Assembly: GCA_963764725.1 (NCBI GenBank)
Contig: CAVXTM010000001.1
Location: 96,001 to 160,000, forward strand
From: an uncultured Gammaproteobacteria bacterium
GTDB taxonomy: Bacteria > Pseudomonadota > Gammaproteobacteria > JACCXJ01
Length of the DNA: 64,000 nt
Direction of reading: 5' to 3'
In this document: positions 33,356 to 44,773 of the stretch, in pieces
How positions within the stretch are numbered: position 1 is the stretch's first letter
How the letters are laid out: each line of letters starts with the position of its first letter
Notes under the pieces: generated by a model
Told to the model about the DNA's origin: nothing
The model's database searches: none
What the model saw: only the letters and a program-made list of their open reading frames with translations
Program-made: the position numbers and the translations under genes

Positions 33356-33634
33356 GTGATCCGCGGCTTCAAGCACAAAGGTTTGGGCCAGTTCTTTGAG
33401 ACCGGGTCCAGAGGAGGCATCCAGACACAACACGCTGAACGGCTGCGCCTTATTTTGGGCCGTCTGAATGCGGCAACCGCTCCGAAAGATATGGCGCTTC
33501 CCGGGGTGGATCTTCATGCGCTCAAGGGTGACCGGAAGGGTGGTTGGGCGGTGTCGGTAAGCGGGAACTGGCAGGTCACATTTAAGTTCGTTGGGAAGGA
33601 CGCTAATTTCGTCGATTACGAGGATTATCACTGA
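33356..33634 (+). CDS. higB: HigB-like toxin (second copy)
   Basis: IRGFKHKGL...LHALKG...[13 protein letters not shown]...DYEDYH. Confidence 0.92.
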
Positions 33635-33647
33635 AGAGAGCATCGCA

Positions 33648-33935
33648 ATGCGTATGCACAACCCCCCTCATCCGGGCGAGATCATCAAATCCCTTTGCCT
33701 TGAGCCCTTGGGCGTGAGCGTCACGCAGGCCGCGAAGGCCCTTGGCGTTAGCCGCAAGACGCTCTCTGCCATTCTGAACGGCCGGGCCGGTATCAGTCCC
33801 GAGATGGCCGTCCGTCTTTCCATTGCGTTCGCTACGCCCGCTGAAAGCTGGCTCAATCAGCAAACGCAGTATGAACTTTGGCATGCGGAACGGCGTCGCA
33901 AGGAGCTTCGGGTGGCTAGGCTCGCCGCGGCATAA
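33648..33935 (+). CDS. higA: HigA family antitoxin (second copy)
   Basis: [11 protein letters not shown]...[10 protein letters not shown]...[10 protein letters not shown]. Confidence 0.93.
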
Positions 33936-34970: not shown

Positions 34971-36179
34971 ATGAAAATCGTTATTGCCCCCGACTCCTTC
35001 AAAGAGAATCTTACCTCCCTAGAGGTTGCGACCGCCATCGAGCGCGGGATCCGCCGGGTCCTGCCCAAGGCGCGATGCGTCAAGATCCCGATGGCCGACG
35101 GTGGCGAGGGCACGGTGCAGTCACTGGTCGATGCCACGGGGGGCAGCCTGCTGCGAAAGCGGGTGCGCGGTCCCCGTGGCGTACTGGTGAGCGCTCGTTA
35201 CGGGATCCTCGGTGACGGCGAGACCGCGGTGATCGAAATGGCCCAGGCGTCCGGGTTGCCGTTAATCCCGAAAGCAGAGCGAAATCCGCTCGAGACGACC
35301 ACCTACGGTACCGGGGAGCTCATTATTGATGCCATCGCAAGGGGGATCAAGTCCATTATCATCGGCATCGGCGGTTCGGCGACGGTCGATGGCGGAACAG
35401 GCATGGCGCAAGCGCTCGGGGTAAAATTCATAGGCGCCAACGGTAAGGAGATCACCGCACTATGCAGCGGCGGAATGCTCGATCAGATCGCCAGGATCGA
35501 TATGAGCGGTCTCGATCCGAGGGTGAGAAAAACCCGAATCGTTATCGCCAGCGACGTGGATAATCCCTTGTATGGCCGGCGCGGCGCGGCCTATGTCTTC
35601 GCTCCGCAAAAAGGCGCGACCCCGGAGATGGTGAAGCTGCTCGATAGCAATCTCCGGCGCGCGGCGGCGGTGATTAAGCGAGATTGCGGCATCGACGTCG
35701 GAAAGCTCAAGGGCAGCGGCGCCGCCGGAGGATTAGGGGCGGGGCTGGTTGCCTTTGCCCGGGCGCGGATTAAAGGCGGCGCGGATCTGGTGATCGAAGC
35801 AACGCAACTAAAGCGCTACTTGAAAGATGCGGATCTGGTCATTACCGGCGAGGGGCGGGTCGATTTTCAGACCGCGTTCGGCAAGACGCCGGCAGGTGTC
35901 GCGAAGGCGGCCAAGCAATTCCGGGTGCCCGTGGTGGCCATCGGCGGGGGGCTTGCGGACGATGCTCGGGGGGTCTATTTCCACGGCATCGATGCCCTCG
36001 AAGCCGGGGCCGCGCGCGACATGGATCTCGCGGAGGCCTTGCGTCTTTCGAGGCAACACTTGGAGAACGCGGGTGAGCGCGTGATGCGCCTGATCTTAAT
36101 CGGAAAACGCTTAGGTCAACGCCGGGCCACGGGCGCCCTGCGGCCGGGCAAGCGAACGTTTCGCGCGAGTCAACAGTGA
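34971..36179 (+). CDS. Glycerate kinase (GlxK/GarK family)
   Basis: MKIVIAPDSFK, PMADGGEGT, GIGGSAT.DGG, GAAGG, TGEG. Confidence 0.95.
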   Translation: MKIVIAPDSFKENLTSLEVATAIERGIRRVLPKARCVKIPMADGGEGTVQSLVDATGGSLLRKRVRGPRGVLVSARYGILGDGETAVIEMAQASGLPLIPKAERNPLETTTYGTGELIIDAIARGIKSIIIGIGGSATVDGGTGMAQALGVKFIGANGKEITALCSGGMLDQIARIDMSGLDPRVRKTRIVIASDVDNPLYGRRGAAYVFAPQKGATPEMVKLLDSNLRRAAAVIKRDCGIDVGKLKGSGAAGGLGAGLVAFARARIKGGADLVIEATQLKRYLKDADLVITGEGRVDFQTAFGKTPAGVAKAAKQFRVPVVAIGGGLADDARGVYFHGIDALEAGAARDMDLAEALRLSRQHLENAGERVMRLILIGKRLGQRRATGALRPGKRTFRASQQ

Positions 36180-36853
36180 GTCGCGGATGCGTCGCTTTCG
36201 AGCTCAGAGAAGCGCACCGGCAGCGTTTCCTTGGTGGACAACCTGCCCGCGGGATCTTTTACCACGACGATGAGTTTTTGCGCATCGGCGAGCCCGGCGG
36301 GGATCACCATCCTACCACCGCGCTTGAGCTGGTGTAGTAGGGGTGGGGGGATCAGATCGGGCGCCGCGGTGACGATGATTTTGTCGAACGGCGCAATCTC
36401 GGGCCAACCGAAATAGCCATCACTGATGCGTGTTTCGATGTTGCGGTAGCCCAACTTTCCGAATCGGCGCTGAGCTTGCTGCGATAACTCTTCGATAATG
36501 TCCACGGTGTAGACCTTGGCTGAAAGCTTCGCGAGGACGGCCGCCTGGTAACCTAGGCCGGTTCCGATCTCGAGCACCGTGTCGGTAGCGTTCAGGGCCA
36601 GGAGATCGGTCATCAACGCAACGATAAACGGCTGGGAAATGGTTTTGTTATAACCGATGGGCAAGGGCGTGTCGGCGTAGGCGTAGCCCTGGAATTCCAC
36701 CGGCACAAATTCATGCCGCGGGATCTCGGCCATGACCTGCATCACGCGCGGGTCCAGCGTGGATTTTCCGATGAAATCGACGCACATGCCGGTGTGCGCC
36801 TCAATGTCGGAGATCATGTGCTGCTGCATTGAAGCGAAGAGCGGTTCATTCAT
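36170..36853 (-). CDS. pcm: Protein-L-isoaspartate O-methyltransferase
   Basis: TISQP, VLEIGTGLGYQAA, APFDKIIVTAA, GGRMVIP. Confidence 0.93.
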   Translation of the reverse strand: MNEPLFASMQQHMISDIEAHTGMCVDFIGKSTLDPRVMQVMAEIPRHEFVPVEFQGYAYADTPLPIGYNKTISQPFIVALMTDLLALNATDTVLEIGTGLGYQAAVLAKLSAKVYTVDIIEELSQQAQRRFGKLGYRNIETRISDGYFGWPEIAPFDKIIVTAAPDLIPPPLLHQLKRGGRMVIPAGLADAQKLIVVVKDPAGRLSTKETLPVRFSELESDASATHC

Positions 36854-36949: not shown

Positions 36950-37549
36950 CTAGCGCTTTCCGTACTGCAGAGGCGTGCCCGTGCGCTGGGCATAGATATA
37001 GGTCTCCAGCGCCCGCATCTCAGGGGAATCCGGAGCAAGCTTTTTGCCCCGTACCGGATTTTCGATGCACCAGTTGATCGCGTCTCGCAACAGTGCGACC
37101 CGCCCGAGCTGGGCCTGAAATTTCGGGTAAGTCTCGGGGTGGGTATTCGATCCATCCGGATGGCACATATCGCAGGAGACGGCGATAGTGCTCTTTAGCC
37201 GATCGCCGCTGTGAAAGATGCGCGAGCCTTCGACGGCCAATTTGTACGTCTCTTGCTGCCAGACATTTACATCCTCGGGGGTAACGCTACCGTAAGTCGA
37301 TCCCTGGCCCTTACCGATGAGACCCTTGTTGTCGGCCGGAACCACCACCTTGTGCTTGGCCAACTCTTCGGCCATCCAGTCGCGTGCTTCGCCTCTGCGT
37401 TTCCATTGCGCCATGGTCGCGTCATCGGTGCCCGGGTCTTGTTTGATGGCGGCCGGGTAGTCGCCGCCCAGCTCCGCCGCCCGCCCCTGGGAGGACATCA
37501 GCGACACGAGCGTGAAGATGGCGCCTACGAGAAGTTTGAACGTGCGCAT
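36950..37549 (-). CDS. Exported monoheme cytochrome c, SoxA/TsdA-like domain
   Basis: Sec signal; CDMCH; downstream YPKF...LRDAINWCIENP. Confidence 0.85.
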   Translation of the reverse strand: MRTFKLLVGAIFTLVSLMSSQGRAAELGGDYPAAIKQDPGTDDATMAQWKRRGEARDWMAEELAKHKVVVPADNKGLIGKGQGSTYGSVTPEDVNVWQQETYKLAVEGSRIFHSGDRLKSTIAVSCDMCHPDGSNTHPETYPKFQAQLGRVALLRDAINWCIENPVRGKKLAPDSPEMRALETYIYAQRTGTPLQYGKR

Positions 37550-37582
37550 TTTCTTATCCTCCTGAAACGATGAGGTGACTCC

Positions 37583-38716
37583 TCAATAACTTTGAAGATT
37601 AGGCGTCAGCGGCACGGCGCTTTTTCCCTCGCTCGTCAGATAAGCGCTCGCGACCTGAATTGGGTTGCGGTTCCAAAGATTGTAAAGTTTATCGACGAGG
37701 CCACCCGCTTTGACGCCGACCGATCCATCCCCGAGCGCGTCGTTGGGATTGAAGGGATCGGCACGGTTCATCTGCACCGTGAGGGCCGGCAACCCCTCGG
37801 GCGCATAAGGCCACGGCCAAGCGGTGGACAGCATTCCGTGGAAATGGATGTTGCCGATCCGATGGGTAAGGATCTGGTGGGTATGCCCGTGCACGACCAC
37901 CACTTGCTTGAAACGCTGCAATAAGGCCTGTACCTCCTCGGCGTCCTCAGTCCAGAAGTTCCACGGACGATAGTACTTGTATAGCGGGGAGTGCGAAAAC
38001 ACGATGAGCGGCGTGGCATCGGAATAGGCAGCGAGGTCGTTTTTGAGCCAAGCCTGCTGCTCCGTCCCGACCTTGAAGCGGCTCTGGATGCCGTTGTCGA
38101 GCCCTGCCACCGTCTGCATCCGCTCCATCCCCGTCATGCCACGCTCGCTCCAGAAGTCATCCTCCAGCACACTGTGGAGAACGACAAAGTGAACGCCCTT
38201 GTGATCAAACGAATAGGTGGGTTGACCAAACAGCGTGCGCCATTTCTCGCCCATATCCAGAAACCAGTCGTGCTCGCCGACCATCATCTTGACCGGCGCC
38301 TTGAGGCTCTTCAGGATCTGCGCGCCGAGCTCGAGCTCCAGGGGTTGTCCCAGTTGCGCGAGGTCACCTCCATAGAGCACGAAATCCGGCTGCGGCGCCA
38401 TGTGGTTGATGTCGTTGACGGCGCGCAGCAACTGCCGAACGAAGCGGTCATTGAGCTCGCGTTTATAAAGGTGTGAGTCGGAGATATAGGCGAAGGTGAA
38501 TGCCACCGGACCCGCCTCTCCGGTCGCGGCGTGGGCCACCTGCACCGGCTGGAAGCTGTGGAAGTTGAATTCCACACCGCGCGCGAGCGCGGCTGCAGCG
38601 GCGACGGCGGAGAGCTTGAGAAAGCTCCGGCGGTCGAGGTTTTTCAAGCCACGGAACAATGCCTCGCGTTCTTCGTAGTATTTCGTCTCGACGCTCTTAA
38701 CGATTGTTCGTTTCAT
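37583..38716 (-). CDS. Tat-exported calcineurin-like metallophosphoesterase
   Basis: DRRSFLK twin-arginine motif; DSH, GGDL, GEHD, SHSP, GHTH. Confidence 0.9.
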   Translation of the reverse strand: MKRTIVKSVETKYYEEREALFRGLKNLDRRSFLKLSAVAAAAALARGVEFNFHSFQPVQVAHAATGEAGPVAFTFAYISDSHLYKRELNDRFVRQLLRAVNDINHMAPQPDFVLYGGDLAQLGQPLELELGAQILKSLKAPVKMMVGEHDWFLDMGEKWRTLFGQPTYSFDHKGVHFVVLHSVLEDDFWSERGMTGMERMQTVAGLDNGIQSRFKVGTEQQAWLKNDLAAYSDATPLIVFSHSPLYKYYRPWNFWTEDAEEVQALLQRFKQVVVVHGHTHQILTHRIGNIHFHGMLSTAWPWPYAPEGLPALTVQMNRADPFNPNDALGDGSVGVKAGGLVDKLYNLWNRNPIQVASAYLTSEGKSAVPLTPNLQSY

Positions 38717-38732
38717 CTTTGTGCCTCCAAAC

Positions 38733-40064
38733 TTACCTGGTCCCGCCCATGACCCGCTCTTCAAACGGCAATACGCGACGCTCGGCCATCGCCGTGTCGC
38801 GGAAGGGGCGCTTCGCCGCGGCCAGCCTGCGCTGTTCTGTAAAGGCGCGCTGATTTTGCTCCGTAAAGCGCGCGTCGCTAAGCGTAAACATGAACTCCAC
38901 GACCGCATCGATTTCCTCTTCGCTCAGGGCCAGCGGTTCGATGCCGCCGTCTAGAAACGGATTGGGCTCGCCGCCTTTGTTATAGTGATCCATCACGTCC
39001 CACAGCGTCTCCATAGACCCATCATGCATGTAGGGGCCCGTCAGTGCGATATTGCGCAATTGCATGGTCTTGAACGCCCCAATGTCGGCACGATCCTTCG
39101 TGACCATGAACCGGCCAAGCTCCGATAGATCGGTCTCGATCGCCAGGCGATCGACCGCTTTCATACCTCCTTCTTGCGCCAGGGCATCGAGAGCCCGGCG
39201 CGCTAGCTCTTCGAAATTTTGCTTGCGCGCCGCCACCCCGATATTGTGAAATCGATTGTCGCTGCCGATGGGAATGGAAGGGTTCATCTGGTGACAGCTC
39301 ATGCAGCGCCCCTTACCATTGAATAGGTTCCAGCCGCGCTTGGCCTCCTCCGAGATGGCCTCCGGGCTGCCCGCTAGGTAGCGATCGAAGGGGGCATCGA
39401 GAAACACGAAGGTACGCTCAAAGGCGGCGATGGCCCGCCCCAGATCGTCGTAGTTCGGAGCCCGCCCATAGGCGAAGGAGAACATGCGCTTGTATTCGGG
39501 ATCATCGGCGATCGCTGCCAGCGCCGCCCCCTCGTTGGCGTGGCCCATCTCGATCGGGTTGACGATGGGCAGTTTCGCCTGTTCCTCGAGGCTCGGGGCG
39601 CGGCCGTCAAGAAACATGGTTTGCAGCAAAAAGGCATTCATGGTGGTGGGGGCATTGCGCTTGCCCAGGGCGCCGTTTATTCCCTCCGAGACCGCCCGCT
39701 GGTCGGTAAAGCCTCGGCTGACGTCATGACAGGTAGCGCAAGCCACAGTGCCGTCCTTGGACAGCCGGGTTTCGAAGTAAAGCTTCTTCCCAAGCGCCAC
39801 CCGTTCGGGCGTCATTTTGTTGTCTTCGGGGATCACAAGTCGTTGCCAGATCCCCGGATCCACACCAGGCGGGGACTGGGTTACGTCGCGCTCCGGAAGT
39901 AAGCTCTCGAGGAGGGTTTCTTGCTGACCCATGTCGAGGGCGCCGTGGGGTCCACGCGGCCCTGCGGCATTCTCTTGCAACTGCGTATTGCAAGCCCCTA
40001 ACCACGGAAGCACCATCGTAATTAGTAGAAAAGCCGTGCGATTTCTAATTTTTTGGTACTGCAT
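38733..40064 (-). CDS. Diheme bCcP/MauG superfamily protein
   Basis: LGKKLYFE.RLS, CATCH, RNAPT, DGRA.SLEEQA, CMSCH, AFKT..LRN, PYMHDG; lipobox-like LGAC. Confidence 0.93.
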   Translation of the reverse strand: MQYQKIRNRTAFLLITMVLPWLGACNTQLQENAAGPRGPHGALDMGQQETLLESLLPERDVTQSPPGVDPGIWQRLVIPEDNKMTPERVALGKKLYFETRLSKDGTVACATCHDVSRGFTDQRAVSEGINGALGKRNAPTTMNAFLLQTMFLDGRAPSLEEQAKLPIVNPIEMGHANEGAALAAIADDPEYKRMFSFAYGRAPNYDDLGRAIAAFERTFVFLDAPFDRYLAGSPEAISEEAKRGWNLFNGKGRCMSCHQMNPSIPIGSDNRFHNIGVAARKQNFEELARRALDALAQEGGMKAVDRLAIETDLSELGRFMVTKDRADIGAFKTMQLRNIALTGPYMHDGSMETLWDVMDHYNKGGEPNPFLDGGIEPLALSEEEIDAVVEFMFTLSDARFTEQNQRAFTEQRRLAAAKRPFRDTAMAERRVLPFEERVMGGTR

Positions 40065-40761
40065 TGGTGATCCTCTCACGGTTCTCTTGTCCACGCCGTC
40101 GGGTAAACCCATTCTCCTGGCGACACCCAGCGGTCGCCTTCACGACAAAATTATAACGCGCGCTGACTATTTTTGGATTTTCGTCCGTTGCGGAAGGCAC
40201 ATGCCAAAGCGACCGCACGTTAGAGCGGCTCTCGTGCAGCACGATCGTGATGGCGATTTGCTCGATCGCCGCGAGCACACAAATCAGCGTGGCCAGCCGA
40301 AACGGCCAGGTCGGACCGCCGGCGAACATGAGGAAGGCGGTGCTAGCAGCCACCGCAGCCGCCAACTTAACGCCCCAGGTGTGATAGGTGGGAAAGACCC
40401 TGAATTTCAACATACCGATGACGGCAGATAGGGCGGAGCCCGCGATCACCGCCATGATGAAGGGCGCTTCTTGGCGCATGATGTCAGGCCATAACCACCA
40501 CGCCGTGACCGGGATCGTGACATACATCACCACGTCGCCGGCGGTGTCCAATAGGGCCCCGAGTGCGGATTCCTGCTTCAATACCCGCGCGATGAAACCG
40601 TCGAGCGCATCGCTCAGGAACGCTAGTACGAGGACCGCCAAATAGGCCTTCGGCATCCCATGCCAAGCGAGCAGGCCGAGCACGGGCGCCGCGATGAACC
40701 GAAAGCAGCTCAGCAAGTTCGGCCAAGTGAGCACGCCGTTGATATTCTCCTGAAGTGCCAT
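40045..40761 (-). CDS. CDP-alcohol phosphatidyltransferase family protein
   Basis: PNLLS..R, SDALDGFIAR...S.LGALLD..GD. Confidence 0.9.
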   Translation of the reverse strand: MALQENINGVLTWPNLLSCFRFIAAPVLGLLAWHGMPKAYLAVLVLAFLSDALDGFIARVLKQESALGALLDTAGDVVMYVTIPVTAWWLWPDIMRQEAPFIMAVIAGSALSAVIGMLKFRVFPTYHTWGVKLAAAVAASTAFLMFAGGPTWPFRLATLICVLAAIEQIAITIVLHESRSNVRSLWHVPSATDENPKIVSARYNFVVKATAGCRQENGFTRRRGQENRERITNAVPKN

Positions 40762-43351: not shown

Positions 43352-44773
43352 ATGAACAGCAGCGTTCTAATTATTGAGGATGATCCCGGCCTGCGGCTAA
43401 AGCTCGCAACCGTGATGGAATTCCTGGAGTATCGGCAAATTATCGCCTGCGGCCACGGCGAGTGGGAGCCCCGGCTTCGGGAGGCGGAAACCGTTGAGCT
43501 CGTTTTGTTAGGGAGTTGTGGCTCGGCGCGAACGTTGATCGATGTGTTCCGTGCGCTTAAGACCTGCGATCCTTATCGCCCGGTCTTACTCGTCGCGGAA
43601 GCGGGCGGATTGCCGAAAAACAACCAGGAGATCGAGGCCGGGATCCTCGGCGAGATAGAATTGCCGGTCCGTTATAAGCAATTCACGGGCGTCTTGCAGA
43701 GGGTCGATCTTTATCGACAAAACCGGCATGAGGACGGCACGCCCAGGCCCTTGGAGCTTTTTCGTAGCCTGGTCGGCACCAGTACCGGTATCAAGCGCAT
43801 ACGCAAAATGATCGGGATGGTGGCCGCCACCGATGCGAATGTGTTGATCACCGGCGAATCGGGCACGGGAAAGGAAGTCGTGGCAAGACACCTTCACTAC
43901 AATTCAAAACGGCGGAGTAAGCCGTTCGTGCCGGTAAATTGCGGCGCCATTCCCGCCGATCTCTTGGAGAGCGAGTTGTTCGGGCACGAAAAGGGAGCGT
44001 TTACTGGAGCGATCACCTCGCGGCAAGGCCGCTTCGAGATGGCCGAAGGCGGAACGCTGTTTTTGGATGAGATCGGCGACATGAGCTTGGCGATGCAAGT
44101 GAAACTGTTGCGCGTGCTACAGGACCGCACCTTCGAGCGCGTCGGCAGTAACAAAAGCATCACCGCGGACGTACGAATCGTCGCCGCGACCCATGTCAAT
44201 TTGGAAGAGGCCATCGCCAAGGGCACGTTCCGAGAGGATCTCTTTTACCGCTTGAATGTTTTCCCGATTGAGATGCCGCCGCTGCGGGAACGTATCGAGG
44301 ATATGCCATTGCTCGTGAACGACCTCGTCGCTCGCCTGGAGCACGAAGGCCGGGGCAGATTACGATTAACCGACCTGTGCCTCGAATCACTGACCGCCTA
44401 TCACTGGGCCGGCAACATCAGGGAGCTAGCGAACCTGATGGAACGGCTGGCGATCCTCTACCCCGACGGGGTAGTGGACTTACATGATCTCCCGGAGAAA
44501 TATCAGGCGGTGGAGTTAGCGGAGCGAGCGCCGATTCTCGTGGGCGAGCCGCACGCCGAATCGGTTTCGTCCTTGCCGCGGTTGCCGCGCGGGGGGATCG
44601 ATCTCAAGGAACATTTGAATAATCTCGAGTGCACGATGATCAAACAAGCCCTCGACGAGGCCCACTGGGTGGTTGCGCACGCGGCTAAGCGATTGAAAAT
44701 GGGGCGTACGACCTTGGTGGAGAAGATGAAAAAATTTGGGATGCACCGCGCCGAGGAAACGGTGAACGGCTAG
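43352..44773 (+). CDS. fleQ: Sigma-54 enhancer-binding protein FleQ-like
   Basis: Degenerate REC-like N-terminus, ELFRSLVG, GESGTGKE, GAFTGA, GIDLKE..., TTLVEKMKK. Confidence 0.82.
   Translation: MNSSVLIIEDDPGLRLKLATVMEFLEYRQIIACGHGEWEPRLREAETVELVLLGSCGSARTLIDVFRALKTCDPYRPVLLVAEAGGLPKNNQEIEAGILGEIELPVRYKQFTGVLQRVDLYRQNRHEDGTPRPLELFRSLVGTSTGIKRIRKMIGMVAATDANVLITGESGTGKEVVARHLHYNSKRRSKPFVPVNCGAIPADLLESELFGHEKGAFTGAITSRQGRFEMAEGGTLFLDEIGDMSLAMQVKLLRVLQDRTFERVGSNKSITADVRIVAATHVNLEEAIAKGTFREDLFYRLNVFPIEMPPLRERIEDMPLLVNDLVARLEHEGRGRLRLTDLCLESLTAYHWAGNIRELANLMERLAILYPDGVVDLHDLPEKYQAVELAERAPILVGEPHAESVSSLPRLPRGGIDLKEHLNNLECTMIKQALDEAHWVVAHAAKRLKMGRTTLVEKMKKFGMHRAEETVNG

Follow-up and report, generated by a model that had tools for sequence, protein, structure and literature searches.

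Three co-oriented ORFs on the minus strand of a 64,000-nt stretch of DNA (the window) encode, in order, a dihaem protein of the CcP/MauG family, a metallophosphoesterase-fold protein (MPE) and a SoxA/TsdA-type monohaem cytochrome c. This triad may well specify a single periplasmic, peroxide-linked complex with the order haem-dimetal site-haem, a reading given a probability of around one half. The genes are separated by exactly 16 and 33 bases, and the ORF coordinates therefore bear out the tight, co-oriented trio described in the original prediction; the motifs PYMHDG and VMDHYNKGG that it had picked out are both present in the translated dihaem protein. The dihaem gene starts at an ATG at position 40064, with GAGAGGA 7-13 nt upstream, while GGAGG and AGGAGG precede the starts of the MPE and cytochrome genes respectively. 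The neighbours of the triad in the window are unrelated genes.

Relatives of the MPE gene were found in 498 species genomes, and all counts of synteny refer to the best 80 of these 498 loci. Of the 80, 78 carry the dihaem gene, 75 the cytochrome gene and 73 the complete triad, always in an identical order and on the same strand, and the loci with the triad span at least seven groups at phylum level. Contig ends truncate six of the seven incomplete loci: in the five lacking a cytochrome match just 194-544 bases remain past the MPE match, and in L056, where only 160 bases precede the MPE, the 34 C-terminal residues encoded by the dihaem gene are still visible. L019 is the only one of the best 80 loci truly without a dihaem gene. 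In 76 of 78 loci an estimated -16 to +74 nt separate the dihaem stop from the MPE start. The linkage of the three genes is far beyond chance, and the neighbourhood survey, a check put forward in the original prediction, supports conserved synteny, although it may loosen among the remoter loci because the 80 studied are the closest of the 498. All-against-all ORF clustering across the best 80 loci found no fourth conserved gene; mau genes are absent from these loci, so the triad is not located in a mau cluster as MauG is, and no Sox genes recur in them. Two proteins, P0124 (744 aa) and P0125 (745 aa), which share 78% identity, are clean in-frame dihaem-MPE fusions that retain both CxxCH sites, HYNNGG, GEHD and WPWPY.

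The dihaem protein (P0001, 443 aa; 38733..40064, with this and all features below on the minus strand) belongs to the CCP_MauG superfamily, having two CxxCH sites and a match to PF03150 of 181 bits in Pfam against a cut-off of 25.6. Its LGAC sequence is a possible lipoprotein signal. The CxxCH of the peroxide-binding haem 1 (residues 109-113; 39726..39740) and that of haem 2 (residues 254-258; 39291..39305) are invariant in 68/68 orthologues (C109/C112/H113 and C254/C257/H258), as are the distal residues Q162, P166 and E172 of the peroxide pocket. Tyr361, in the motif DHYNKGG (codon at 38982..38984), is the candidate axial ligand of haem 2. Through an ungapped extension of the alignment with 1eb7, it falls at the position of Met275 of Pseudomonas CcP, the ligand of the electron-transfer haem in that enzyme; since this residue is Tyr in 68/68 orthologues and Met in none, a canonical bacterial CcP with a His/Met haem was rejected. 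Tyr361 also aligns with the Tyr of MbnH and, residue for residue, with Tyr294 of MauG (3l4m), which is the ligand of the six-coordinate haem according to the accessible text of PMC6405878; the proposal of a Tyr at the haem-2 axial position is upheld by these alignments and by its invariance.

Among NCBIfam models the best match of this protein, over the full profile, is to TIGR04039 (MbnH), but at 219.3 bits against a cut-off of 362.85 and without an MbnP-like conserved neighbour; the MauG equivalog TIGR03791 was likewise rejected (211.6 bits against 443.85). The C-terminal domain is nearer to MbnH (6e1c, 47.5 bits) and MauG (37 bits) than to canonical CcPs (at most 30 bits), whereas the N-terminal domain matches canonical CcPs best, with 167 bits to the Shewanella enzyme. 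The bridging Trp of MauG (FWDGR) is Leu152 in the window protein, this position being Leu in 38/68 orthologues and Trp in 30/68. Model contacts and conservation together suggest that the C-terminal tail (residues 429-439; 38748..38780) is a docking peptide, F434 and E435 each being kept in 48 of the 49 alignment rows that reach it.

The second protein (P0002, 377 aa; 37583..38716) matches PF00149 (Metallophos) with 64 bits in Pfam, and in a fold comparison its AF2 model comes nearest to GpdQ, Rv0805 and purple acid phosphatases. It is predicted to be Tat-exported, in line with the original prediction, from the twin-arginine motif DRRSFLK (residues 28-34; 38615..38635), in which R29, R30 and F32 are invariant (74/74), and from scores above the cut-offs for PF10518 (24.1 against 22.7) and TIGR01409 (20.2 against 16.7). 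The MPE keeps the superfamily motifs DxH, GD, H and GHxH, and the metal-ligand positions D80, H82, D118, H149, D150, H242, H278 and H280 are unchanged in 74/74 sequences. The sole change is in motif III, which reads GEHD in place of GNHD/E (residues 147-150; 38267..38278), with Glu148, aligned with Asn80 of GpdQ, also invariant in 74/74. This complete and conserved hydrolase site suggests genuine ester hydrolysis, which the reading as a peroxide-linked complex leaves unexplained. The database names 'CpdA' and 'Icc' lack support, as the CpdA/Icc model NF008359 scores 34.9 against a cut-off of 225; an identity as SoxB was rejected, there being no match to a SoxB family in NCBIfam (E-values up to 0.01) and the nearest folds being GpdQ, Rv0805 and purple acid phosphatases. 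Of the three proteins the MPE shows the strongest conservation, with a mean column identity of 72% against 57% and 48% for the others, and 64-98% identity across 73 orthologues. Nine Trp residues are invariant in the orthologue alignment; Trp252 (codon at 37961..37963) and W300, W302 and Y304 of the WPWPY motif (residues 300-304; 37805..37819) are each unchanged in 74/74 sequences.

The third protein (P0003, 199 aa; 36950..37549) carries a Sec signal and, judged by sequence and fold matches, is a SoxA/TsdA-type cytochrome: it matches the domain PF21342 with 43.3 bits against a cut-off of 27, and a putative ligand Cys occupies the distal position. Its haem-binding CDMCH (residues 126-130; 37160..37174) has C126, C129 and H130 invariant in 67/67 sequences, as is Cys161, the putative distal haem ligand, in the motif INWCIENP (codon at 37067..37069). 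Cys161 is aligned both with the two ligand cysteines of SoxA (1h31) and with the Cys in the RIGDC motif of TsdA, and these alignments support the His/Cys cytochrome that had been proposed. Three arginines surround this residue: R155, which does not vary, and R150 and R167, each kept as Arg in 61/67. TsdA and SoxA head the fold search, with weak E-values of 0.03-0.09, and the sequence match to TsdA is weak (E = 0.023). Assignment as SoxA (TIGR04484) or as a TsdA enzyme was rejected on account of a score of 33.6 bits against a cut-off of 110, a single haem site and the lack of a SoxX-like neighbour.

Modelling of the three chains together supports a ternary complex with the MPE predicted to lie between both haem proteins. 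Three runs gave ipSAE values of 0.83, 0.82 and 0.43 (median 0.82), compared with 0.07 for the best control; the ipSAE mark was reached by 116/157 solved complexes and 2/215 mismatched pairs in the calibration, from which this job differs in having three chains, custom alignments and haems included, and the value is the model's own confidence. The runs share at least 55% of contacts, with a partner pLDDT of at least 87. We know of no solved complex of the dihaem-MPE-cytochrome kind, so a high score from a memorised structure is unlikely. The side of the dihaem protein predicted to touch the MPE comprises residues 253 and 256 beside the haem-2 CxxCH, the loop 367-377 and the tail 429-439. The pairs of lowest error place residue 369 and tail residues 432-438 against MPE residues 93-101, the helix contacted by the tail, and 137, and residues 372-374 against MPE 323-325. 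On the opposite partner, the haem-motif region of the cytochrome (residues 124 and 128-131) is predicted to touch Trp252, through residue 131, and MPE residues 300-303 of the WPWPY motif; cytochrome residues 160-161 and 164-167 also fall in the modelled interface, but its lowest-error contacts are at the haem-attachment motif and not at Cys161. From this model we infer that the cytochrome would sit over the rim of the MPE active site, and likewise the haem-to-metal distances.

The genes found beside the triad point to a context of peroxide defence. A PerR-, OxyR- or RsrA-like regulator is nearby in 26 of the best 80 loci (Fur/PerR-like in 11, an ECF sigma factor with an RsrA-like anti-sigma factor in nine and an OxyR-like LysR protein in six), these names being best matches below the curated cut-offs (PerR 82/200, OxyR 264/329, RsrA 31/62.5) in an NCBIfam scan of five representative loci; no such regulator is near the triad in 54/80 loci, the window included. 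The triad is followed directly by katG in L047 and L049, a second, canonical CcP lies upstream in L008-L010 and a rubrerythrin-VIT1 gene upstream in L022, and in P0130 the cytochrome gene reads on into a Bcp-type peroxiredoxin. Such neighbours, and the resemblance of the dihaem N-terminal domain to canonical CcPs, would suit a plain periplasmic peroxidase that detoxifies peroxide with its own donor cytochrome, the MPE being a separate co-regulated hydrolase or a scaffold, as would the peroxidase activity that a Tyr-to-His mutant of BthA retains, according to the accessible text of PMC6405878. This is nevertheless highly improbable, given that the MPE is conserved more strongly than either haem protein, that its gene is flanked by the other two and joined to the dihaem gene in P0124 and P0125, and that canonical Met ligation is lacking. 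Furthermore, donor proteins bind canonical CcPs at the haem-2 face, which is where the MPE is predicted to lie, and His/Cys haems have a very low potential and are unusual as respiratory-chain donors.

In the favoured reading as one peroxide-linked complex, the dihaem subunit would resemble MauG and MbnH in having one haem that is open to bind peroxide and a second, six-coordinate haem with His/Tyr ligands, and would react with H2O2. Its Tyr-haem edge and conserved C-terminal tail would clamp the Tat-exported, GpdQ-like dimetal subunit, and the His/Cys cytochrome would dock on the Trp-rich MPE loops (W252, W300-P-W302-P-Y304). Oxidising equivalents from H2O2 could then pass from the Tyr-haem to the MPE subunit, by Trp/Tyr hopping or to the metal pair, to be balanced by electrons entering via the His/Cys haem, such that the net reaction would be H2O2 reduction coupled to the oxidation of some periplasmic substrate. 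The formation of this complex in cells, the use of H2O2 as oxidant, the direction in which electrons would travel and a role for the MPE metal pair are all inferred. The view that the three proteins form a single redox system centred on the phosphoesterase-fold protein is supported by the synteny and by the ternary model.

The original prediction went further in regarding the dihaem protein as a maturation enzyme rather than a detoxifying peroxidase. In that case a MauG/MbnH-type maturase would install a Trp- or Tyr-derived cofactor in the MPE, which would act as a dehydrogenase with the His/Cys cytochrome as its dedicated acceptor, H2O2 being needed for biogenesis only. Both MauG and MbnH modify Trp of a partner protein (PMC11951088, PMC6405878, each as far as the accessible text goes), and the invariant Tyr361 aligned with Tyr294 of MauG, the C-terminal domain closer to MbnH and MauG than to canonical CcPs and the nine invariant Trp of the MPE are consistent with such a role. 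So is the model, in which the Tyr-haem side is turned towards the MPE and W252, W300 and W302 are predicted to contact the haem motif of the cytochrome, a place at which a quinone-type cofactor would pass on electrons. However, a maturase role does not follow from the Tyr alone, because the BthA Tyr-to-His mutant still reduces H2O2, and while the Leu in place of the bridging Trp in 38/68 orthologues weighs against it, BthA forms bis-Fe(IV) without that Trp (both in the accessible text of PMC6405878). An intact dimetal hydrolase site would also be needless for a quinone enzyme. The covalent 1:1 fusions, the conserved docking tail and the recurrence of peroxide-defence genes are easier to reconcile with a lasting, peroxide-linked subunit than with a maturase that acts a single time. 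The maturase reading is considered unlikely, though still a live rival.

The likeness of the cytochrome to SoxA raises a further alternative, as SoxB, too, is exported by Tat and belongs to the phosphoesterase superfamily. Here the His/Cys haem would work in the way of SoxA or TsdA: an S-adduct of the Cys161 thiolate with sulfite or thiosulfate would release two electrons, the MPE would hydrolyse the adduct to sulfate in the manner of SoxB and the dihaem subunit would deliver the electrons to H2O2. The PF21342 match, the alignment of Cys161 with cysteines that are catalytic or haem ligands in SoxA and TsdA, the surrounding arginines (R150, R155 and R167), the placing of residues 160-161 and 164-167 in the predicted MPE interface and the complete catalytic site of the MPE are all compatible with this scheme, and the RsrA-like, thiol-stress-type regulators and P0130 point to thiol or peroxide chemistry. 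It is decidedly improbable even so: the SoxB and SoxYZ models of NCBIfam are unmatched, Sox genes are not recurrent in the 80 loci, the SoxA equivalog and TsdA matches are poor, the carriers are, by their record titles, mostly not known sulfur oxidisers, the modelled contacts of lowest error avoid Cys161, and the parallel with SoxB is an analogy. A bolder reading, tentative and unlikely, is a previously unrecognised haem-dimetal-haem enzyme class in which the power of a peroxide-derived high-valent haem would reach the metal site of the MPE, or a Trp/Tyr-derived cofactor formed there, via an invariant Trp/Tyr lid, the His/Cys haem completing a composite active site. One concrete possibility under this reading would be a molybdenum-independent, H2O2-linked periplasmic oxidation of sulfite, thiosulfate or another oxyanion; if true, it would take place in many soil and sediment bacteria, atmospheric-methane oxidisers among them.

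No description of the triad was found in the literature searched. MauG-type dihaem enzymes are known from few partner systems, namely MADH, MbnP and the orphan BthA, to which the triad contributes one that is widespread and in which a partner of unexpected fold is joined by a His/Cys cytochrome. Should the complex prove real, a calcineurin-like phosphoesterase fold would be seen wired between haems for the first time; the complex would also offer a new handle on periplasmic peroxide biology and would correct the common mis-annotation of the MPE as a 'CpdA/Icc cAMP phosphodiesterase'. As cultured carriers exist, such as Cystobacter fuscus, Archangium minus, Methylocapsa aurea and Nitrosococcus halophilus, the triad is a clean, testable three-protein target.

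The triad is a variant of the MauG/MbnH-plus-partner theme. With MauG and pre-methylamine dehydrogenase (TTQ biogenesis) it shares the CCP_MauG dihaem fold, the Tyr at the position of Tyr294, the Gln, Pro and Glu on the distal side of the peroxide haem, an adjacent partner gene and, in the model, the orientation of the Tyr-haem side to the partner. It differs in its score (212 bits against the cut-off of 444), the absence of mau genes from the 80 loci, the Leu at the bridging-Trp position of the window protein, a partner with a phosphoesterase fold rather than a dehydrogenase small subunit, and fusions and a docking tail that suggest a standing complex. The MbnH-MbnP pair (kynurenine formation, copper binding) provides the best C-terminal match (6e1c), an aligned Tyr and the same two-gene logic of enzyme and partner; by contrast, the triad protein is below the cut-off of 363, an MbnP-like partner is absent, a third gene encodes the His/Cys cytochrome, and the neighbours are peroxide-stress rather than copper-uptake genes. 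BthA, the Burkholderia dihaem enzyme with a stable bis-Fe(IV) state, also has the His/Tyr six-coordinate haem that is putative here, is similarly an orphan as to physiological substrate and, like the window protein, has no inter-haem Trp, with Ser257 in BthA; it is longer (477 aa), shares just 60 bits with the window protein, and the accessible text of PMC6405878 mentions neither a phosphoesterase nor a cytochrome as its partner. The SoxAX-SoxB and TsdA systems share the haem domain with its aligned ligand Cys and, for SoxA-SoxB, the apparent pairing of a haem protein with a dimetal protein that bears a Tat signal and belongs to the phosphoesterase superfamily. Unlike SoxAX and TsdA, the triad cytochrome has one haem domain (and 33.6 bits against 110 for the SoxA model); unlike SoxB, the MPE is GpdQ-like and not of the SoxB or 5'-nucleotidase type, and the SoxYZ carrier is absent. 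Finally, the class III phosphodiesterases of the GpdQ, Rv0805 and Icc type have the nearest folds (E-values from 2e-12 to 1e-9) and the same DxH, GD, H and GHxH motifs, but at 12-19% identity, and the MPE is set apart from them by the invariant Glu replacing the Asn of motif III, a Tat signal, a C-terminal extension of about 90 residues with WPWPY, and haem-protein partners.

The dihaem gene of the CcP/MauG family (P0001, 443 aa, 38733-40064), the metallophosphoesterase (MPE) gene (P0002, 377 aa, 37583-38716) and the SoxA/TsdA-type cytochrome gene (P0003, 199 aa, 36950-37549) are open reading frames on the minus strand of the window, each preceded by a purine-rich ribosome-binding sequence. 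The separations of 16 and 33 bp between the co-oriented genes that were originally claimed are exact in these coordinates, and both of the quoted motifs, PYMHDG and VMDHYNKGG, are found in the translated dihaem protein. All three products exceed the Pfam cut-offs for their respective domains: PF03150 (CCP_MauG), PF00149 accompanied by a Tat signal, and PF21342 (SoxA/TsdA cytochrome c domain). A scan for promoters and terminators returned sites no more numerous than in shuffled sequence.

A survey of gene neighbourhoods, covering one genome per species, identified 498 loci with relatives of the MPE, and bears out the expected conservation of synteny: of the best 80, which were analysed, 78 have the dihaem gene, 75 the cytochrome gene and 73 all three, always on a single strand in the order dihaem, MPE, cytochrome. 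In the five loci without a cytochrome match the sequence stops 194-544 bases past the MPE, and one locus lacking a dihaem match (L056) begins 160 bases before the MPE, with the C-terminus of the dihaem protein still visible. The only true absence of the dihaem gene among these 80 is at L019, where an F420 ligase gene is found in its place. By record title, the carriers among these best 80 loci span Gamma- and Alphaproteobacteria, Myxococcota, Binatia, Thermodesulfobacteriota, Planctomycetota, Acidobacteriota and Spirochaetes, and two genomes, those of Vitiosangium sp. GDMCC 1.1324 (L036 and L041) and one Polyangiaceae bin (L046 and L072), have two triads each. All-against-all clustering of the 3802 ORFs in the 80 loci detected no fourth conserved gene. 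As these counts cover the best 80 of 498 loci, gene order could be kept less strictly among remoter relatives.

The window's own triad neighbours (CDP-alcohol phosphatidyltransferase, PCMT, glycerate kinase and an EEP-family protein) are unrelated to it, and contigs of USC-gamma uncultured Gammaproteobacteria, such as MUGK01000042 (MPE 96% identical), are nearly identical to the window. The CDP-alcohol phosphatidyltransferase ORF (40045-40761, minus strand) overlaps the start of the dihaem gene by 20 nt; its homologues in four close relatives (L001, L002, L004 and L006) stop 86-100 nt short of that gene, hence the longer tail of the window copy is probably not conserved. A protein-L-isoaspartate O-methyltransferase gene (36170-36853, minus strand), separated by 96 bp from the upstream cytochrome gene, keeps this position in seven loci, including L001-L003 and L005-L007, and is therefore probably not a member of the system. 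Pfam also identifies, about 3 kb away, a toxin-antitoxin pair of type II (33356-33935, plus strand), in which the ORF of a HigB-like RelE-family toxin (92 aa) overlaps that of a downstream HTH antitoxin (114 aa). A sigma-54 activator whose N-terminal domain is of FleQ type is encoded at 43352-44773 (plus strand); eight loci (cluster 13), comprising L004, L005, L007 and a few distant ones, have homologues close to their triads, and the recurrence in close relatives probably reflects shared ancestry.

Of the three proteins the MPE is conserved best, its mean column identity being 72% while that of the dihaem protein is 57% and that of the cytochrome 48%, and its orthologues are 64-98% identical to the window protein across phyla. 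Its AF2 monomer model is of moderate quality (pLDDT 73), with GpdQ, Rv0805 and purple acid phosphatases as the closest folds. Across 74 sequences the metal-ligand positions, the catalytic His, the twin-arginine motif and nine Trp, among them W252 and those of the W300-P-W302-P-Y304 segment, are invariant; the one systematic change is in motif III, where the Asn aligned with GpdQ Asn80 is replaced by Glu148 (giving GEHD). The names 'CpdA' and 'Icc' found in the source annotation are not supported, the model score being 34.9 against a cut-off of 225, and assignment to the purple acid phosphatases was rejected, because motif II reads GDLAQ and has no Tyr at the GDxxY position. A protein atlas search returned nothing more specific than 'metallophosphoesterase'. 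In a representative library clustered at 50% identity this tight family is reduced to essentially one full-length member, alongside sister Tat-signal phosphoesterases of 35-48% identity (P0149-P0254), most of which keep the Tat signal, GEHD, PWNFW and WPWPY-like motifs.

No curated equivalog model claims the dihaem protein, judging by NCBIfam-type profile scores: it reaches 219 bits with the MbnH-family model (cut-off 363) and 212 with that for MauG (cut-off 444). When compared with solved structures, its two domains point in different directions. The top scores of the N-terminal (peroxide) domain are to canonical peroxidases (3o5c, 167 bits), whereas the C-terminal domain scores 47.5 bits with MbnH, about 36 with MauG and at most 30 with canonical enzymes. 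In the C-terminal alignment the direct counterparts of Y361 are Tyr294 in MauG and the motif Tyr in MbnH, and Y361 falls at Met275 by ungapped extension of the 1eb7 alignment. It is invariant in 68 of 68 orthologues, as are both CxxCH sites and the distal Gln162, Pro166 and Glu172. By contrast, where MauG and canonical enzymes have an inter-haem Trp (FWDGR), the window protein has Leu; of the 68 orthologues, 38 have Leu and 30 Trp. The same lack of a Trp between the haems is described for BthA, which nevertheless forms bis-Fe(IV), and whose Tyr-to-His mutant retains H2O2 reduction, according to the report on BthA (PMC6405878). The original prediction took Tyr as a haem-2 ligand to indicate a maturation enzyme and not a peroxidase; the placement of the Tyr is supported, but the exclusion of a peroxidase does not follow, because the behaviour of the BthA mutant means that this residue alone cannot decide between the two.

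The cytochrome consists of a single SoxA/TsdA-type domain. TsdA and SoxA also head the fold search, but the E-values (0.03-0.09) are weak and the AF2 model behind them is moderate (pLDDT 67). C126, C129, H130, W160 and C161 are invariant across 67 sequences, in which no invariant Met was found. In alignments, C161 coincides with the cysteine in the RIGDC motif of TsdA and with each of the two ligand cysteines in Rhodovulum SoxA. A Sox-like oxidase of sulfur oxyanions is suggested by the presence of a SoxA-type haem alongside a hydrolase of the phosphoesterase superfamily, but seems improbable given that no other Sox components accompany the triad in the best 80 loci.

Physical coupling of the dihaem protein and the MPE is supported by two clean in-frame fusions of the two, P0124 (744 aa) and P0125 (745 aa), recovered by a search for longer proteins; the pair share 78% identity over 703 residues and retain all key motifs; their dihaem domains are 43% identical to P0001 and their MPE domains 53% identical to P0002. 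Another dihaem-MPE candidate, P0126, was set aside as a likely frameshift or read-through artefact, as were the putative MPE-cytochrome fusions P0129, P0138, P0140 and P0142, on account of their Arg-rich, out-of-frame-looking stretches. In the metagenome protein P0130 a triad-type cytochrome continues into a peroxiredoxin domain of the Bcp/AhpC-TSA type, whether by genuine fusion or through loss of the stop codon separating two neighbouring genes; it is counted for adjacency alone.

Structure prediction for the three chains with three haems, the MPE being the scored partner, gave ipSAE values of 0.83, 0.82 and 0.43 (median 0.82), compared with 0.07 for the best control. In the calibration, 116 of 157 solved complexes attain that mark, as do two of 215 mismatched pairs, counts that are rough here since no calibration job had this shape. 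Contact agreement between runs was at least 55% and partner pLDDT at least 87. On the dihaem side the predicted interface has three parts: residues 253 and 256 next to the CxxCH of haem 2, the loop shortly after Tyr361 (367-377) and the C-terminal tail (429-439). The pairs with the lowest predicted error link dihaem 369 and tail residues 432-438 to MPE 93-101 and 137, dihaem 372-374 to MPE 323-325, and the haem-motif region of the cytochrome (124, 128-131) to MPE W252 and 300-303; cytochrome residues 160-161 and 164-167 are also in the interface. Judging by the positions of the loops after motifs IV and V in this fold, the cytochrome would sit over the rim of the MPE active site. As MPE residues 300-330 are modelled with low confidence in the monomer (blocks at 51-61) and the whole chain reaches at least 87 in the complex, the predictions fit a segment that would become ordered only upon partner binding. 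The conservation and position of the MPE, its fusion to the dihaem protein and the predicted interface all argue against a plain detoxifying peroxidase with the MPE as a bystander hydrolase, a reading held to be improbable.

Stress regulators and peroxide enzymes recur near the triad in the best 80 of 498 loci. Fur/PerR-like genes are found at 11 of the 80 (ten by clustering and L035 by Pfam), ECF sigma factors with zf-HC2, RsrA-like anti-sigma factors at nine and OxyR-like LysR genes at six; these sets do not overlap, amounting to 26 loci, where the regulator names are best matches below curated cut-offs and the NCBIfam scan covered five representative loci. At two loci (L047 8070-10301 and L049 6130-8319) the triad is followed immediately, on its own strand, by a katG-type catalase-peroxidase gene (PF00141), and a Fur/PerR-like gene precedes it, an arrangement that looks like a compact peroxide-stress operon. 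A second dihaem peroxidase of canonical type, 39-40% identical to P0001, is encoded divergently upstream of the triad in L008 (3177-4238, minus strand) and likewise in L009 and L010, and a rubrerythrin-VIT1 gene is found upstream in L022. Two myxobacterial loci have genes for large proteins with hemocyanin/tyrosinase (type-3 copper) domains a short distance upstream of the triad (L041 2280-4520 and L043 2300-4510).

The reading preferred here, to which a probability of roughly one half is given, is that the triad forms a standing, peroxide-linked complex of three subunits, in which the MPE links a MauG-type Tyr-haem to a His/Cys haem. That the dihaem protein instead matures the MPE, as originally proposed, accords with the Tyr, with the invariant Trp residues of the MPE and with the predicted geometry, yet appears considerably less likely, fitting the fusions and the peroxide neighbours less well. 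No description of the triad was found in the literature searched, which is weak evidence of novelty, subscription journals and supplements being outside its coverage. There is a real chance that the triad constitutes a new enzyme class; relative to known systems, it is classed as extending the theme of MauG or MbnH plus a partner protein with a new combination.
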